Part shown: one piece after another, positions 56,084-64,000 of the stretch
Position numbering within the stretch: the first letter of the stretch is position 1
How the letters are laid out: the number at the start of each line of letters is the position of its first letter
Assembly (NCBI GenBank): GCA_934393265.1
Contig: CAKRQL010000005.1
Span: 1,897 to 65,896, forward strand
DNA: 64,000 bases
Reading direction: 5' to 3'
Source: an uncultured Eubacteriales bacterium
GTDB taxonomy: Bacteria > Bacillota > Clostridia > Oscillospirales > CAG-272
The notes under the pieces: model-generated
Seen by the model: only the letters and a program-made list of their open reading frames with translations
What the model was told of the DNA's origin: nothing
Databases searched by the model: none
Made by a program: the position numbers and the translations under genes

Positions 56084-56473
56084 TCAAATCCCAAAGAACC
56101 GCTCAAAGAAGCCCTTTAGTTTTTCTATGATTCCGCGCTTTTTCTCCGCGCGGTTCCCGCCGCCGAAGCGGGATGTGGGCGGCATCAGTTTGTCAATATC
56201 GGTGCCGGTCGTCTTAATCTCCCCGTCGCGGAAGGCGTTATCGATAAATTTACGTGTCTCGCTCTCGTTAAGCTTTTCGTCGGCAATGATGGCGGACAGC
56301 TCTTTTTCCTTTTCCTCTGCCACATAGCCGTGCCATTCGGTCAGCACGTCTTCCACGTCGTTGATGCCGGAAATGAAGGTCTCAATCAATGCCTTTTTAC
56401 TGCGCAGCTCGGGGCTGGCATCAACGGCTTTCTGAATCGTGATCAGAACCTCTTTGTCTGTCCCGTGCGTATA
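56084..56473 (-). pseudogene. hsdR: 3' remnant of a type I restriction enzyme R subunit (HsdR, EcoR124-like C-terminal domain)
   Basis: The frame is open from the TGA at about 56474-56476 to the stop at 56084. It reads PYYTHGTDKEVLITIQKAVDASPELRSKKALIETFI...FRDGEIKTTGTDIDKLMPPTSRFGGGNRAEKKRGIIEKLKGFFERFFGI. No helicase part and no ATG. Confidence 0.6.
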
Positions 56474-56773: not shown

Positions 56774-56849
56774 CTGGGTGTGGCGCAGTTGGTAGCGCGC
56801 TACCTTGGGGTGGTAGAGGCCGCAAGTTCAAGTCTTGTCACTCAGACCA
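56774..56849 (+). tRNA. tRNA-Pro (anticodon GGG), CCA encoded
   Basis: Hand-folded cloverleaf. Acceptor CTGGGTG/CACTCAG, D arm GCGC-AGTTGGTA-GCGC, anticodon stem CTACC/GGTAG with loop TTGGGGT, T loop TTCAAGT, 3' ACCA. Confidence 0.88.
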
Positions 56850-57128: not shown

Positions 57129-57488
57129 ATGAATATGAAAAATGCTATCACATACAAAAACAGGAACGGTTACCTTTATCCCCTGCTGGCACTTTCCGAA
57201 ACAGAAGAAGCGCCGATCGGCAAATACGGGTGGATGTATCTTGACTATCTAAAGAAATATCGGCGAGGTACATATACTTCTCTGCTGACAAGTGGCAATC
57301 TTGGTGAAGAACTCTCCAAATTTGACGCAGAAGTGCGAAATGAAGTTGACCTCATACTTGCCCGGCTTATAGATGAACGAGGCATCACAGAAACTCTGAA
57401 AGCCGCGAACCCGCTTCGTTGGGCGCAGGAAATGAATACCGCAAAGCATGATGCAGAAGAAACTGTATTGCATGATTACCTGAAATAA
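57129..57488 (+). CDS. tnpV: TnpV-family protein (Tn4451-type transposon accessory protein)
   Basis: 119 aa. PIGKYGWMYLDYLKKYRRGTYTSLLTSGNLGEEL...ERGITETLKAANPLRWAQEMN matches the TnpV pattern as I recall it. Confidence 0.78.
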   Translation: MNMKNAITYKNRNGYLYPLLALSETEEAPIGKYGWMYLDYLKKYRRGTYTSLLTSGNLGEELSKFDAEVRNEVDLILARLIDERGITETLKAANPLRWAQEMNTAKHDAEETVLHDYLK

Positions 57489-57738: not shown

Positions 57739-59433
57739 TTAGATTTCCGGATCATACCCTTGACAATAAACAAGTAATATCAGAAAAAATGCTTCTGCTT
57801 CTTGAATGCTGAATTGTGTGGTTGACGAAAGGCCGCTATGAAAACTACGATTTCGAAAATTCCCGCCTAATTTTCTGCATAAACGGTATTCCAATTGTTG
57901 CACCAAAGAGGGATCCAACACTTCAAGAAGTGCATTTCGAAAATAGTTTTGACGATTCCCTTTCTGCACTAACATGTTATTTATGTTTATAGTGTTGCCG
58001 TTGTGGATTGGATAAATATGTTTTCGATCTTTTATGTAAGATAAGAAACCGTTTTCAAGCTGAGGAATCAGATAGTATAATGCATCGCTAATATTTTTTC
58101 GGAGTCCAGAAAGAATCTTCTCGAATACTACTGCATATCTGTCTTTGGGAACAAACAAATTGTGAGATAGCAGATCACTAATAAAATCAGTAAAGTCTTG
58201 ATCAATTTTCAGATTATCAATAAATGGTCCCAAAGTCAGCTGACAGGAGACGACGGTGTGAAAATTATAAATGTCGGATATAATCCGTTCTTTGGTATCT
58301 TCATCTGTCGCAACAGCAGATTCGTAGTCAATCGTTCCGTTATTATTAAAACTGATATTATTCATCTCGTATCGAGGAGAGCCTTTTCGTTTCTGGTACT
58401 CTTTTTCGGCGTTAGCAACTTCATATGGCTTGAAGTATTCCAAAAAAGCCAGAAATTGCATTGTCCCATCAGGCAGAGCTTGCATGGTTTCAATCATCTT
58501 TTTCTGGTAAGATTCTGCCTTATTTGACAGATCATCATCCAACTCAAAGGTCATTGACTTCATGTCCAAAGAACTATATAATTTCTTCTGTTCCTCCTCG
58601 CTCATAAACTTCAGGTCTGAAAATTGGGGTGATGATTCGCTAAAGTAAGAAGCTGCCCGTTCAAGATAACGATAGCCATGAGGAGAAGTTCGGTTTGCAA
58701 CTTTTTTCGCTATATCAGCATAACGCAATTTCCATTTTTCTTTTTCGTTCGAATCCTTTATATGATGGAACAAGTTATCAATAATATCAAGAGAAATTGG
58801 CTCATCAAGGTGTTTATCAATAGTCATGTTTGCCGCCGAAATTCCTTTTTGTATCAAGGAAGGCGCGAATTTGGGAATGAACTTAGACAAATAAAACACC
58901 AACGAAAACTCAACCTCATCGGAATAGTCTTTTTGCTCAAGCAAATCTATGACAATACTTTTCATATTTTGCTTTTTCCCGTTTTGGTTAAGCAAATACA
59001 AACACCGTTGTAGTGGCGGAATGAATTCATGCGTTTTTCCGCAATCGACAAGTTCACTGAAATTCTTGTAATATTCCTCGGCTGCCTGAAGCTTTAATTC
59101 CTTATCTTCTTTCAAAAATCCGACAACATCAAGTATTTTGGCTCTTAATGCATGAGATTCTGTTAAGTCCAATAAAGACAAAGCAGTAGCTAAGTCTTCT
59201 TCGGAAAGATCAGAAGGTTGAATACTTCTTTTTTCTTTCAACACCATCATCGGTGAAAAGGGACATGGCTGATATAAATTCGGCTGATATATAAAACTAA
59301 AGCGACCTTTGAGAAAATTTATGGCATCTTCTATGTTCCGAGGCATTGATACTGCCTTTGTGCGATATTTCATCAAGCCCATTGTCAAAATAGCTTTGTT
59401 TTCATCGAAATATTGTTCTATTTTATCCATCAA
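57739..59433 (-). CDS. Large hypothetical protein with C-terminal Rx4H HEPN-like motif (DUF4209-like, from memory)
   Basis: 564 aa, about 28-42% GC on sampled lines. The C-terminus reads CRKLGGNFRNRSFHSGLSS (R-x4-H). GAGG RBS. No TM segment or signal peptide. Confidence 0.8.
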   Translation of the reverse strand: MMDKIEQYFDENKAILTMGLMKYRTKAVSMPRNIEDAINFLKGRFSFIYQPNLYQPCPFSPMMVLKEKRSIQPSDLSEEDLATALSLLDLTESHALRAKILDVVGFLKEDKELKLQAAEEYYKNFSELVDCGKTHEFIPPLQRCLYLLNQNGKKQNMKSIVIDLLEQKDYSDEVEFSLVFYLSKFIPKFAPSLIQKGISAANMTIDKHLDEPISLDIIDNLFHHIKDSNEKEKWKLRYADIAKKVANRTSPHGYRYLERAASYFSESSPQFSDLKFMSEEEQKKLYSSLDMKSMTFELDDDLSNKAESYQKKMIETMQALPDGTMQFLAFLEYFKPYEVANAEKEYQKRKGSPRYEMNNISFNNNGTIDYESAVATDEDTKERIISDIYNFHTVVSCQLTLGPFIDNLKIDQDFTDFISDLLSHNLFVPKDRYAVVFEKILSGLRKNISDALYYLIPQLENGFLSYIKDRKHIYPIHNGNTININNMLVQKGNRQNYFRNALLEVLDPSLVQQLEYRLCRKLGGNFRNRSFHSGLSSTTQFSIQEAEAFFLILLVYCQGYDPEI

Positions 59434-59549: not shown

Positions 59550-62500
59550 TTACCCTTTTATCGCCTCCAGCACCCGATCCACGGTCTTGCCGTCCCAGCC
59601 GGTGCAGAGCATTTGCTTGGTGATGATGGTTTTATAGAGCGGGTTTTGCTCGATGACGCTCCAGAGATGGCGTAGGATGTGGATATAGTCATCAAAGCTA
59701 TCCTGCACTTTGGCAGCCACGGTTTTGCGCCACTCCTCGGCGGGTTCTTTGCCGGCGTAAATGTCGTTGAGCTGCTTGCAGAGATAATTGATGGCACCGC
59801 CGATACCGGGAAATTCGCTTTCGTTGGCGTCCGGATTTCTCGGTTCTTCCGCAATCTTTACATGGAGCAACAGATGTTCGAGCAGATTGCAATAGACAAG
59901 CCGATTCTTTTTCTGATACTCAAACGGATTCCGCGCGGCATACTCGTCATTGCTGAGCATGATTGCCTTATCTTCATCGATATGATGGCAGAAGAGGCCT
60001 TCGGCGGTACGGGAAACCAATTTGTTCTTGATAGTGCATTCTCTGTCGGTGAAATAATCGTGCTTTGCGGCACCGTATTTTTTTAGAAGAAGATCAACAA
60101 GCATTTCATATCCATAGCTCAACATTTCTTCTATATGAGATTGACCAACCATTGGACGCATGGTATGCTCTATTAGATCAATTTCCTGCGAATCTAAGCC
60201 ATATTTTTTGTATAAATCCTCGTCACAGTGAATCGCCGCATAATCCTCTATTGGCACAAACATGAAGTTTTTTTGTGAAATGTTCATTGACGATAGCGTT
60301 TGCCGAAGCAAAAACCGCGGAAACTTTAGAGAAATATATCGTACAAAATCATTCGCTTCATTCTCGGTGTTGAAAACTCCCAAAATCATATAAGTAAAGT
60401 TACAAATCTGATTTGGTCTTAAAATACGAGGTTTTGTTATCGCATTATAACCTTTTGCAGGGTCGATTCCCACTTCGCCATTAGATGGAACTACACGAGC
60501 AATATATACTTTCCACAAACCAACAATATCCTTGTTTTTTACGATGGCATCTTTGCTTACATATCCAATTCCCTTACTGTGAATCAGTTCTATGCAACGA
60601 TGTTCCGTCTTAACATCAAATCCCTTATCTTTTGTCGAAAATCCAAATGGGTCTAACGGATACACCACATCTGATAACATTCTAATGGACATAGTTTTTA
60701 CCTTATGGATAATGCTAATTGCGGCATTCGACCTTACAAATATGTTATCAAATTCATTCAGAGTTCTCGACATTCTTGTAACAGTACCACCTATTCTATT
60801 TACGACTTCGCAAGAAGCGTTACTGTTAGGAGTTCGCAAAAAATAACATACACCCCCGGCTATATCCACTGTTGGAAAACACTCTCTAGAGTTTGGATAA
60901 TCAACGAGTTTTTTTATCTTTTCGTCGTTAAGCATTGTAAATCTGAAATCATCTAATCCGATTCCCCCTGAAAACCATCGCGACGGAATTATCATAGAAA
61001 TGTATTGCACATTTACTTTCTTTGCCACATCTACAAAAAGATTAAAAATTGGTTTTGCTTGTGCTGCTGCCTTGTTTGAACTTGAATTATTAGCCGTGAT
61101 TTCTTGATACGGCGGATTCCCGACGATTGCATCGAACTTCATTTCTTTCACCTCTTTTCCCCAATAGCTGCCTTTGAGGATCTTCTTTTTGAACTGCTCC
61201 GGTTTGCTTTTCAGCATATTGACAAGGTCGTCAAAATAGTGGGCATTGACGACCTTATCGTGATAACCGGTCAGCGTGCGTTTTGTGATATATTTTGCCA
61301 TCGGGGTTTTGCAGATGACATAAATATTGTCGCGGAGAACTTCTTCCCACATGGCTTGCAGTTCGGCGGGTTCCCAGTCGTCATCGGTGGTGTCCTCCAG
61401 CTTCTGACGGTAAACACTGTAGGCGACATAGAGCGGATACAAGCCGGTCTTGGAGTTGATCTCCAGAATATGCGTATCCTCGCGGAACACTTCTTTTGTC
61501 ACATCCCCCTGATCCACAAAGCGTGGCTCGTCCAGACGGCGTTTTTCTTCCTGCGTGTCGTCCTCAAACTGTTCATTGAAGAAGCACCAACCGCCCAGCG
61601 TATCGCTCATATGCATATTGACTACACGCCACGGTGTCAGGACAGTTTCCTTATCGGGATTTTTGAAATGGCGGAAGATCTCGGCAATCAGTTTCACGCG
61701 TCTTGTAGGCGTTTCTTTGTCCGCCGCTGCCGCCAGTTTACGAATGCGCTTGCCTGCCGCAATAAACACATCGCGGTCGTAATATTTTGTGAAATCCGCA
61801 AACAGCTGCTTGGTCACGTCTTTGGGCATAAATTCCGCCCATGATGTATCGTCCACCAGTTCCACAAAGCGGTCAATGTCGATATCTTCATCAATCGGCA
61901 CATTGGCACCGTAAATCATCAGCGGCATACGGATAGAAATGCCTCGGAGAATATCAATGGCCTTTTTGCGCGCTTCCTTTGCCTGTTTCTTTTTCAGGCG
62001 ATCCGCGATTTCTTCCGGTGTCAGCGGTGTTGGAGGTGTGACGGGCTCATCATCACCGTCGTCAATATGGGCGATCTGCTCGTCGGTAAGTCCCTGACCG
62101 TTGACAACGACGCTGTCTTTTTTCTTCTGCGCTTTGGAGGCGCCGATAATATCTTTCAACGCATTGAATTTGGAGGCATCGATATCGTCAAGCTTCAGAA
62201 GCTCATCGTTATAAATGGATTCGTCTTCAAATCCGCTGTTGACGGCTCTCTCGGCGTAAATCTGCTTGACCTGCTCCATCATGGAATTGACGCTGTATTT
62301 GGTCATTCTCGATCCGGCAATCGCAATCACAGGGCAATAGTTCAGGAATTCTGTCATTACCTCACGGCGCTTTTTCTGATTCTTGCCGGGTTTACGGGAG
62401 AGATGTACGGTCTCAGTCAGCACTTTCAGGGTTCTGTCGGGTGCAAAGTCGAAAACATAGCAATCGGTTTTCTGCTTGCCGTCAATACATCCGGCAGACT

Positions 62501-63992
62501 GCACACGGAAAATGGTCTGCATATACTGAGAAGCAGCTGTGGAATAGGAGCCGGAAAGCATCAGTACCGCCGTCCACTCCGGAACGGTCACGCCCGTGGT
62601 CAGTTTCCCACAGGAAAGCGTGATGGAATACTTATTTTCACGGATGGTTTTGCGGACAAGCTCCAGCGCGTCCTTTGCGTGGTCTTCCTCGTAAGTATCG
62701 CCCTCTCCGGCGACATTGGCAATGCCGAAATGCATAAACACCGGGTGATGGCGGAGCATTTCGCTGAGTGCCTTTGCCTCTTTGACACCGGGCACCATCC
62801 ACAGCGTATGGCGGAACATATTGCGGTAGGCATCGGTAGAGAAGGGATAGATGCTGTTCTTGTCCTCTTTTGCCATCAGATCCAGGAAAGAACGGACATC
62901 CGCCTCGTGTACGAAATTGCCCTCAACAGCACCTTGCGGAATCTCACGCTTGCCATGCGGTCCTCTTGACCATACACGGAAGAATTCGCGGAAGTTGAAT
63001 GCTTTTGTATCGTATTCGTCCGAGACATATTTTTTCAGTTTTTCGCCGAGATCGTAGGTATAAATATGCATCTGCGGTAGATCGGCATAAGGGTTGTGGT
63101 CACCGTAATGCTCCGCGTCCCACTCTGCCTTTTTCTTCTGCTCCATGACATAGTCCCAGGTATAGACATTGTCTTCGCCGAACTTATCAAGCAGATTGAA
63201 CGGCGTGCCGGACAAAGCCAGCACTTTGGTGTCCGCTTTGCGCAGTTGTTTTATGACATGATCGCCCAGTTCGGTCTGTGTGCCTTCGTGGGCTTCGTCA
63301 ACGATGATAAGATCCCAGTTCAGGTCAAATACCGCGTTGTTTTTATTGAATTTTCCGCCGACACGTTTGGAGCCGCGCAGATCCTGAATCGATGCAAAAT
63401 AGAGGAAATAGGCGCCGTCTTTATCAAGCCGTTTGATTTTCAGATCATTTTCAAGGTCGATCTTCTCATCGTAGGTATAGGCGGAGTCGTTGGTTTTCAG
63501 TTCAAAGGAATAATCATGCTCGGACGAGCCCGGATAAAAGATTTTTGCAAAGTCCGTGCTCCATCCGTCGCTGACGACCGGACGATGCGTGACAATGATC
63601 ACGCGGCGATACTGCGAACGGCGCACGACTTCAAGGGCTGTCAGCGTTTTGCCAAAACGCATTTTGGCATACCACAGCATTTCGTTCTCTTTTTTGAACG
63701 CTTTGATGGTCTGTTCGATTGCCGCCTTCTGCTCATCACGGAAATCTATTCTTGCAACCGTCTGCCCGTCAGAGGTTTTCTCGGTTGCGGAAAGCGCGGA
63801 CTTGCCCTGCTTTACGGCAAGGATCGCGCGAATTGCCACATCTACCGTCGTAGCAAACCATTCCTCGCCCGTTGCACCGTTTGGCTGTACCTTATTGATG
63901 CCGGAATTCATCAGAACCTTGTGGACATCCTTGTCCTTGAAAGTGAATAAATATCCGTCCTTTTTCAGGACAGCCAGCTCGGTATATTCCAA
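59550..63992 (-). CDS. Giant fusion protein: DEAH helicase + Eco57I-like NPPY N6-adenine methyltransferase/TRD + extra HNH-like C-terminal module (5' end probably beyond window)
   Basis: At least 1480 aa. The listed start is a TTG and the frame stays open to nt 64000. Motifs: AKMRFGKT, IIVDEAHEG (63288-63299), LALSGTPF, QTIFRVQS, VGNPPYQ (61107-61118), CHHIDED...NRLVYCNLLEHLLLH (59862-59990). Confidence 0.85.
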   Translation of the reverse strand: MEYTELAVLKKDGYLFTFKDKDVHKVLMNSGINKVQPNGATGEEWFATTVDVAIRAILAVKQGKSALSATEKTSDGQTVARIDFRDEQKAAIEQTIKAFKKENEMLWYAKMRFGKTLTALEVVRRSQYRRVIIVTHRPVVSDGWSTDFAKIFYPGSSEHDYSFELKTNDSAYTYDEKIDLENDLKIKRLDKDGAYFLYFASIQDLRGSKRVGGKFNKNNAVFDLNWDLIIVDEAHEGTQTELGDHVIKQLRKADTKVLALSGTPFNLLDKFGEDNVYTWDYVMEQKKKAEWDAEHYGDHNPYADLPQMHIYTYDLGEKLKKYVSDEYDTKAFNFREFFRVWSRGPHGKREIPQGAVEGNFVHEADVRSFLDLMAKEDKNSIYPFSTDAYRNMFRHTLWMVPGVKEAKALSEMLRHHPVFMHFGIANVAGEGDTYEEDHAKDALELVRKTIRENKYSITLSCGKLTTGVTVPEWTAVLMLSGSYSTAASQYMQTIFRVQSAGCIDGKQKTDCYVFDFAPDRTLKVLTETVHLSRKPGKNQKKRREVMTEFLNYCPVIAIAGSRMTKYSVNSMMEQVKQIYAERAVNSGFEDESIYNDELLKLDDIDASKFNALKDIIGASKAQKKKDSVVVNGQGLTDEQIAHIDDGDDEPVTPPTPLTPEEIADRLKKKQAKEARKKAIDILRGISIRMPLMIYGANVPIDEDIDIDRFVELVDDTSWAEFMPKDVTKQLFADFTKYYDRDVFIAAGKRIRKLAAAADKETPTRRVKLIAEIFRHFKNPDKETVLTPWRVVNMHMSDTLGGWCFFNEQFEDDTQEEKRRLDEPRFVDQGDVTKEVFREDTHILEINSKTGLYPLYVAYSVYRQKLEDTTDDDWEPAELQAMWEEVLRDNIYVICKTPMAKYITKRTLTGYHDKVVNAHYFDDLVNMLKSKPEQFKKKILKGSYWGKEVKEMKFDAIVGNPPYQEITANNSSSNKAAAQAKPIFNLFVDVAKKVNVQYISMIIPSRWFSGGIGLDDFRFTMLNDEKIKKLVDYPNSRECFPTVDIAGGVCYFLRTPNSNASCEVVNRIGGTVTRMSRTLNEFDNIFVRSNAAISIIHKVKTMSIRMLSDVVYPLDPFGFSTKDKGFDVKTEHRCIELIHSKGIGYVSKDAIVKNKDIVGLWKVYIARVVPSNGEVGIDPAKGYNAITKPRILRPNQICNFTYMILGVFNTENEANDFVRYISLKFPRFLLRQTLSSMNISQKNFMFVPIEDYAAIHCDEDLYKKYGLDSQEIDLIEHTMRPMVGQSHIEEMLSYGYEMLVDLLLKKYGAAKHDYFTDRECTIKNKLVSRTAEGLFCHHIDEDKAIMLSNDEYAARNPFEYQKKNRLVYCNLLEHLLLHVKIAEEPRNPDANESEFPGIGGAINYLCKQLNDIYAGKEPAEEWRKTVAAKVQDSFDDYIHILRHLWSVIEQNPLYKTIITKQMLCTGWDGKTVDRVLEAIKG

Positions 63993-64000
63993 CTTAAAGT

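Follow-up and report, generated by a model that had tools for sequence, protein, structure and literature searches.

A candidate two-gene, helicase-driven restriction-modification enzyme with an added C-terminal module in a gut Firmicute

The locus and the complete gene

We analysed a stretch of 64,000 nucleotides (nt), hereafter the window, from an uncultured Eubacteriales bacterium (GenBank assembly GCA_934393265.1, contig CAKRQL010000005.1, positions 1,897 to 65,896), at the far end of which lies most of one very large gene on the minus strand. This open reading frame (ORF) is a real candidate for a restriction or defence enzyme, and its family is widespread but uncharacterised. Our analysis suggests, with moderate confidence and on the strength of sequence, that it is the large gene of a two-gene, helicase-driven restriction-modification (RM) enzyme carried on a mobile defence island of a gut Firmicute.

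The minus-strand frame at 59550..63998 runs for 1482 codons without a stop and is still open at the window edge; an initial annotation, made from the letters of the window, had warned that an N-terminal domain might be missing from view. The full gene was recovered by looking up its downstream neighbour (57739-59430, minus strand) in public assemblies. Three human-gut metagenome contigs (L003, L004 and L005) match the window, with identity over up to 16,262 nt; L003 and L004 are 100% identical to it over all 16,262 nt, and the complete ORF lies at L003:5229-9881. The warning was justified, since 68 N-terminal residues of the complete protein of 1550 amino acids (aa) fall outside the window, and the extension of the contig, which had been proposed as a check, ended in a 1550-aa ORF with an N-terminal T5orf172 domain. 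The same ORF is present in independent samples. The large gene and the partner gene in front of it are laid out as follows, in window coordinates unless a contig is named.

59550..64000, minus: 3' 4.45 kb of the large RM gene; open frame, with the first 68 codons and the overlapping partner gene past the window edge
L003:4250-5242, off the window, same strand as the large gene: partner gene, 330 aa, overlapping the large-gene start codon by 14 nt
63819..64000, minus: C-terminal half of the T5orf172 domain (full-length residues 69-128; Pfam PF10544 on the full N-terminus)
63855-63866, minus: conserved EEWF of the T5orf172 domain; a conserved VH also lies in this half
62403..63749, minus: superfamily 2 (SF2) helicase-like ATPase motor (Pfam ResIII, 52.9 bits, E 5e-14)
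63645-63662, minus: motor motif MRFGKT (computed coordinates)
63288-63299, minus: motor motif DEAH, exactly where the initial annotation had it
63201-63212, minus: motor motif SGTP (computed coordinates)
62592-62603, minus: motor motif TTG (computed coordinates)
62499-62519, minus: motor motif QTIFRVQ (Q-x3-R; QxxFRV; computed coordinates)
61671..62402, minus: linker or 'coupler' between the motor and the methyltransferase (MTase), assigned by position only; partly conserved, no family match
60876..61670, minus: gamma-class N6-adenine MTase domain (Pfam Eco57I, PF07669, E 7e-31)
61611-61640, minus: MTase motif X, LTPWRVVNMH (our own reading of the sequence)
61431-61469, minus: MTase motif I-like, ILEINSKTGLYPL (our own reading of the sequence)
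61104-61121, minus: MTase motif IV, GNPPYQ, invariant in the family; spans 61107-61118, the motif as first annotated
60150..60875, minus: target recognition domain (TRD), hypervariable; near-zero conservation across homologues, flanks conserved
60150-60170, minus: ...EHTMRPM, the normal methylase end (computed coordinates)
59553..60149, minus: added C-terminal module, 199 aa (NCBIfam NF053682, SAV1803-related)
59970-59993, minus: FCHHIDED, within the C-terminal module
59862-59903, minus: RLVYCNLLEHLLLH, within the C-terminal module

Translation, motif coordinates and Pfam matches confirm the giant single frame with helicase and MTase motifs that the initial annotation had described, and its description as a single-chain motor-MTase-TRD protein of the restriction or defence type is supported. 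We think it fairly likely that this ORF encodes the large subunit of a single-chain RM enzyme that depends on ATP and is built like the Type ISP enzymes, its activities being predicted from these features.

Domain architecture and conservation

Domain content, conservation, gene partnership, the defence and mobile context and the modular distribution of the C-terminal domain were all read directly, conservation from 68 full-length homologues and locus-level comparisons from 80 of the 281 loci that a single scan of species-representative genomes turned up. The N-terminal domain, roughly 130 aa long and completed by the 68 residues off the window, matches Pfam T5orf172 (PF10544) at 21.6-21.8 bits (cut-off 20); when diverse members of the family were searched one by one, 14 of 15 matched as well, at 21.6-25.9 bits with the same cut-off. 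Residues Y14, K28, G30, R57, E114 and W115 are invariant and H94 is nearly so, and Pfam gave no match to Mrr or PD-(D/E)xK at the N-terminus of family members. T5orf172 belongs to the GIY-YIG superfamily, and we regard this domain as the best nuclease candidate of the enzyme. In the phage ICP1 protein Odn it is a proven nuclease domain (PMC8263062). The initial annotation had placed the only nuclease candidate at the opposite, C-terminal end, which does not hold given an N-terminal T5orf172 domain with conserved Tyr, Arg and Glu in nearly all members; because the full-length N-terminus carries this domain, the Type ISP order of nuclease, motor, MTase and TRD is retained, though with a nuclease candidate of another fold.

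The motor motifs are all conserved at 95% or above. The Eco57I match of the MTase domain reaches 108 bits against a gathering score of 25.3, and motifs X, I and IV are conserved over several phyla. In the wider family the Lactococcus pCV56A homologue (L001:3356-4000) is longer at the N-terminus by about 215 residues, which match DUF4145 weakly, and its partner is shorter (230 aa) and matches the N-terminal region of N6_Mtase; since this homologue differs, N-terminal architecture is not uniform across the wider family.

The TRD (residues about 1090-1320 in full-length numbering) is not conserved. Its GC content is 0.373, against 0.447 for the MTase and 0.484 for the C-terminal module (flanks 0.45-0.50), and it matches the C-terminal parts of PADLOC MTase_II and IIG models. 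Several relatives share about 90% identity across 86% of the protein and diverge beyond that point, and it seems that recombination has brought in a different TRD. In Capnocytophaga bilenii (L088:7941-11097) a 37-nt inverted repeat, 97% complementary, encodes IDTIIGNPPYQV; one copy lies in the NPPY-coding segment of the large gene and the other in an inverted 344-aa half-gene 3 kb downstream, which spans motif IV to the TRD, with the partner gene on the opposite strand. The arrangement looks like an invertible cassette that would switch the specificity of the enzyme. The PADLOC model PDLC03375 ('MTase_II', 348 positions) aligns to full-length residues 1021-1346, beginning at motif IV and covering the TRD half only, and it probably represents silent TRD cassettes or half-genes of this kind rather than complete methyltransferases. 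Because the nuclease, motor and MTase cores are conserved, the TRD is variable and low in GC, and a relative carries what looks like an invertible cassette, we take the combination to be the signature of an RM enzyme with diversifying specificity, not of a housekeeping methylase.

The upstream partner gene

The partner gene is outside the window and so escaped the initial annotation. Among the 80 loci, wherever DNA in front of the large gene is available, the partner almost always stands directly upstream on the same strand. The 330-aa protein matches the PADLOC model PDLC03390 ('MTase_II') end to end (E 2.5e-126), and its family comprises at least 8,000 proteins among the matches listed, with members 65-70% identical to the partner, one of which carries the name 'restriction endonuclease subunit M'. 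The MTase X/I-like motifs AEVFTPSW and CGEAPY are invariant and the C-terminus forms a Cys/His cluster, while an NPPY motif is absent. Distant versions on plasmids match the N-terminal part of N6_Mtase. We therefore describe the partner as a putative MTase-like, NPPY-less protein that is co-encoded with nearly every homologue.

The added C-terminal module

According to the initial annotation, methylases of this kind end at ...MRPM and the roughly 200 residues that follow are an addition. Both statements stand. Plasmid homologues align only up to residue 1283 of the window fragment, and among the 120 closest relatives of the large protein (66-97% identity) about three quarters carry the module and measure about 1545-1579 aa, while the remainder measure about 1345-1376 aa and stop at this point, ending at ...KPM; most of the family, including all Bacteroidota and plasmid members, is without the module. 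The module (window-fragment residues 1284-1482) matches NF053682 at 145.2 bits (cut-off 40, E 9e-43), the match covering residues 1289-1414. SAV1803 is a hypothetical gene bordering the vSa-beta island of S. aureus (PMC6805111). We collected 395 module homologues, mostly stand-alone proteins of about 197 aa with 50-58% identity to the module, usually carried by mobile elements, and an exhaustive profile search gave 935 clusters at 50% identity; the initiator Met of the stand-alone homologues aligns with the M of ...MRPM. Fused orthologues with 62-90% identity occur in many metagenome-assembled genomes (MAGs) and in the isolates Ruminococcus sp. AF46-10NS and Veillonella caviae DSM 20738. We regard the fusion as real, old and maintained, and as limited to a Firmicutes subclade. 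No unfused enzyme followed by a stand-alone SAV1803 gene (a Rosetta-stone split) was found among about 80 loci.

The module also occurs at the C-termini of SNF2 helicases, in 5 of 10 multidomain proteins scanned, and fused to Sel1 repeats; one copy is fused to TnpV, and one stand-alone copy is the last gene in a serine-recombinase/Rep_trans element that has inserted at many sites. The SNF2-module fusions (L105:7591-13609 and L102) are flanked by a NUDIX gene, a TIR_2 protein and an HNH protein, and L106 has a Type I HsdR as well; these loci may be another uncharacterised defence module. One 'phage' match of the module (L107, MG543995.1, 'Staphylococcus phage UPMK_1') adjoins splA, splB and splC, and a phage origin was rejected, the locus being S. 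aureus vSa-beta island DNA inside a phage record. Because this match carries vSa-beta DNA, that collection contains no true phage example of the module.

Family spread and genomic setting

At E <= 1e-10 the large-protein family has at least 8,000 proteins among the matches listed, and the 281 loci of the scan lie in Firmicutes, Bacteroidota, Spirochaetes and other phyla, with hosts that include Clostridia, Veillonella, Bacteroidota, Treponema, Verrucomicrobia, Desulfovibrionaceae and others. Plasmid homologues are found in Lactococcus, Enterococcus, Staphylococcus and Lysinibacillus, many of the plasmids being small and non-mobilizable; no named system matching them was found in papers on the lactococcal plasmidome. 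In the window the GC content falls from about 0.55 to 0.37-0.50 from about 56 kb to the end, and this stretch also holds the following features.

56084-56389, minus: C-terminal end of HsdR (EcoR124_C, Type I), a 101-aa ORF
56774-56849, plus: tRNA-Pro(GGG), between the HsdR fragment and TnpV
57129-57488, plus: TnpV gene
57739-59430, minus: DUF7380/DUF4209 protein, 563 aa, directly downstream of the RM gene; PADLOC candidate defence family PDC-S39

The segment 56084-57488 probably marks the border of the integrated element on which the RM gene lies. The PDC-S39 gene is cargo in its own right, since relatives of the RM gene have other genes at that position, and a promoter-like site of its own lies at 59482-59455. 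This candidate defence gene and an SLFN/AlbA_2-HATPase regulator-like gene are the neighbours of the RM gene. An 83%-identical relative sits between a block of serine recombinase, integrase, TnpV and GmrSD and a radical-SAM/HD pair, and one variant has a ThsB-TIR gene. Along a related element (L098/L099:1-18400) one meets GmrSD, two TnpV, a tyrosine integrase, a serine recombinase, an S24 repressor and SLFN/AlbA_2, then the RM pair, and past it a 297-aa protein, a radical-SAM protein and an HD protein, with a ThsB-type TIR gene in L099 only. This element is a compact mobile defence island with variable cargo slots. A 67%-identical relative without the C-terminal module adjoins Lamassu, Abi_C and KAP-NTPase genes. 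In a Eubacteriales MAG the copy at L021:4986-9578 is interrupted by TAA stops in frame, both past the T5orf172 domain and within the C-terminal module, with MSY*DIV where relatives have MSYQDIV, and is a decaying pseudogene. That decayed copies can be recognised implies that intact copies are kept under selection.

What the C-terminal module may do

Eleven module residues, R47, E50, H55, H56, E59, Q79, Y86, C87, E91, H92 and H96 in 199-aa numbering, are near-invariant among 150 cluster representatives; H55, H56, H92 and H96 are H1406, H1407, H1443 and H1447 of the full-length protein. In an AlphaFold2 model, which is mostly helical and has a predicted local distance difference test score (pLDDT) of 92, H55 and H56 stand at the end of a strand (52-56) that is followed by a 27-residue insertion, and a second strand (84-87) is followed by a helix (89-101) bearing E91, H92 and H96. 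We consider the module an uncharacterised domain that probably binds metal. Because it is repeatedly attached to DNA motors, a DNA-directed effector role is plausible, and we rate action on DNA as a second effector as its likeliest role, though one that falls somewhat short of probable.

How might such a domain serve the enzyme other than as a nuclease? It could well be a regulatory, sensing, oligomerisation or other metal-binding accessory domain taken from the backbones of mobile elements, which we also hold to be quite possible, if not quite probable. A mostly helical fold without a structural relative is in keeping with this, as is the fact that the module is dispensable, being absent from most family members, including all those of Bacteroidota and plasmids; so are the stand-alone copies that are terminal in serine-recombinase elements, the copy fused to TnpV, and the fusions to Sel1 protein-interaction repeats. 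However, the His/Glu cluster is strictly conserved and the module has repeatedly become fused to DNA translocases, both of which speak for catalysis on DNA and against a passive adaptor.

The initial annotation had read the module as HNH or His-Me-like. If it were a His-Me (HNH-like) nuclease, the enzyme would have two unrelated nucleases at its ends and could make double-strand breaks alone. What survives of this proposal is a likeness at the level of motifs: the near-invariant HH...H-x3-H pattern and the strand-strand-helix topology on which its histidines lie resemble the order and topology of colicin-type H-N-H sites. The recurrence of the module at the C-termini of two unrelated SF2 DNA motors also fits, as do several weak matches named 'homing endonuclease' in BFVD (E 0.14-1.4, not significant). 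A link to HNH in sequence, profile or fold did not emerge. Pfam HNH families gave no match in 71 module members at E <= 10, the module profile found nothing in the PDB at E up to 10 and no informative family in PHROGs, and hhalign of the module profile against colicin E9/E7 DNase, a weak test, returned a probability of 0.1 and no similarity. The AlphaFold and Foldseek check that had been proposed for the C-terminus gave the mostly helical model and no nuclease fold match: searches with the full model found nothing below E = 1 in the PDB and nothing below 0.015 in BFVD, while the His-cluster core, modelled separately as an 85-aa crop, came out too poor to use (pLDDT 65) and gave no useful Foldseek match. 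Moreover, the 27-residue insertion between the two strands is helical, and the Cys residues for an HNH zinc site are poorly conserved. We consider a His-Me/HNH fold specifically to be unlikely, and less likely than a DNA effector role as such, and the reading as a second end nuclease of this kind to be unlikely too.

A broader idea, which we find doubtful, is that the SAV1803 module represents an unrecognised nuclease family, possibly divergent His-Me, used alone, on SNF2 motors and here, with the NPPY-less 'pseudo-methylase' as an obligatory partner in control. If true, this would be a translocating restriction enzyme with two unrelated nucleases, in which both strands could be cut without a partner molecule.

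Proposed mechanism and its alternatives

We propose the following mechanism, each enzymatic activity in it being predicted. The TRD and MTase would read a short asymmetric site and methylate an adenine, marking self DNA; unmodified sites would license ATP-driven translocation, and the N-terminal nuclease would then nick or cleave the DNA. The separately evolving 199-aa SAV1803-related module, fused after the TRD in a Firmicutes sub-lineage, would be an accessory module.

Several results weigh against this reading of a two-gene RM enzyme. Sequence searches, including those with a family profile, detect no solved structure, and as far as could be found the literature holds no characterised family member. 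The Pfam score of the T5orf172 domain lies just over its threshold. By hhalign the partner family has no similarity to the MTase-TRD part of the large protein, and the partner profile matched no PDB chain; because of this lack of likeness to either, the role of the partner is a guess. The module received no nuclease assignment from Pfam, the PDB profile search, PHROGs, hhalign or the two Foldseek libraries. Finally, DnmA-YeeB-YeeC of B. subtilis, a split analogue, showed no restriction under the conditions tested (PMC9973331).

Could the helicase-methylase do no more than methylate, whether as an epigenetic or orphan MTase or as cargo that protects a mobile element from restriction? The gene lies on an integrated element with TnpV and recombinases, homologues lie on plasmids, and the B. 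subtilis system behaves as an orphan MTase (PMC9973331), all of which would agree with such a role. Yet the nuclease-type residues and motor motifs are conserved across phyla, the TRD is hypervariable with shufflon-type switching, many of the carriers are small non-mobilizable plasmids or chromosomal defence islands, and recognisable pseudogene copies imply selection on the intact ones, so that we regard methylation alone as improbable. The fusion might also be an error of assembly or annotation, or a single case of read-through between neighbouring genes. In favour of this, the junction coincides precisely with the point where the MTase normally ends and where the stand-alone protein has its usual start Met, but we dismiss the idea as extremely improbable, given the same 1550-aa ORF in independent samples, the fused orthologues in many MAGs and isolates, the retention of all invariant residues in the fused domain and a module GC content that matches the conserved gene body.

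Implications

If the enzyme does work in the proposed way, the family would extend single-chain motor-driven restriction enzymes past the Mrr-based Type ISP prototypes to a GIY-YIG-type nuclease. The two points of interest are the NPPY-less partner and the portable C-terminal domain. The partner is extremely conserved and is labelled a methyltransferase in databases, yet the catalytic motif is absent. The C-terminal domain has a metal-type His/Glu cluster and turns up repeatedly on DNA translocases and at mobile-element borders, and an activity assignment for it would annotate at least 935 protein clusters. For the genetics of the gut microbiome, these enzymes are likely to be barriers to phage and plasmid transfer, with specificities that switch rapidly.

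Comparison with known systems

The initial annotation had suggested that the arrangement falls outside the described classes, which is true in part: the protein differs by sequence from LlaGI and LlaBIII, whereas automated tools file the pair as Type IIG. PADLOC, which had also been proposed as a check, calls the pair a Type IIG RM system (REase_MTase_IIG + MTase_II), and the match of the large protein (PDLC03626, E 2e-50) spans mainly its MTase-TRD part, while the MTase_II component is the partner without NPPY. Like Type IIG/IIL enzymes of the Eco57I and MmeI families, the window enzyme has an Eco57I-family MTase, a TRD and a nuclease in one chain; classical Type IIG enzymes, in contrast, lack a helicase motor, and their cleavage takes place at a fixed distance. 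We also weighed MANTIS/Gao_RL and Hma and rejected them, since their gene content differs and PADLOC gave no matches to either.

For the C-terminal module two comparisons are useful. HmaA (Snf2 + PD-(D/E)xK; PMC11232893) has an SF2/SNF2 motor with a C-terminal effector, the position that the SAV1803-like domain takes on SNF2 helicases; the effector of HmaA is a nuclease, however, whereas the C-terminal domain of the window protein is without a recognisable nuclease fold. In NF053682, SAV1803 itself and most relatives are stand-alone hypothetical proteins (PMC6805111), while here the domain is fused to an RM enzyme.

The same three parts, an N6-adenine MTase/TRD, an SF2 helicase and a T5orf172 protein, are found in the DnmA(YeeA)-YeeB-YeeC system, which likewise occurs in defence islands. 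Its genes, for an MmeI-like MTase, a helicase and a T5orf172 protein, form a conserved cluster that has been put forward as RM-like (PMC2731913, PMC9973331). There the parts are three separate genes and the MTase is of MmeI type, whereas here they form one chain with an Eco57I-type MTase and a different, 330-aa partner. Morgan et al. (2009) and Smith et al. (2012) had already described uncharacterised large single polypeptides, and also relatives with GIY-YIG nucleases (PMC2731913, PMC3553950).

Closest in build are the Type ISP enzymes, with which the window enzyme shares the order, in one polypeptide, of nuclease, SF2 helicase-like ATPase, linker, gamma N6-adenine MTase (NPPY) and TRD; in both cases homologues are borne on plasmids or islands, including lactococcal plasmids. 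Type ISP enzymes use ATP to translocate from an asymmetric site, cleave when two of them collide head-on, and hemimethylate their site. The initial annotation had set the protein outside the LlaGI/LlaBIII family, and this agrees with the searches of all PDB sequences, in which neither phmmer nor hmmsearch with a 16-member family profile gave a match at E <= 1. The Type ISP nuclease is of Mrr/PD-(D/E)xK type, while here it is T5orf172/GIY-YIG-like; the Type ISP enzyme acts alone, while here there is a conserved overlapping partner gene; and this lineage adds an extra C-terminal domain. Thus the enzyme would work like a Type ISP enzyme and yet stand outside that class in its nuclease family, its sequence relatedness and its partner.

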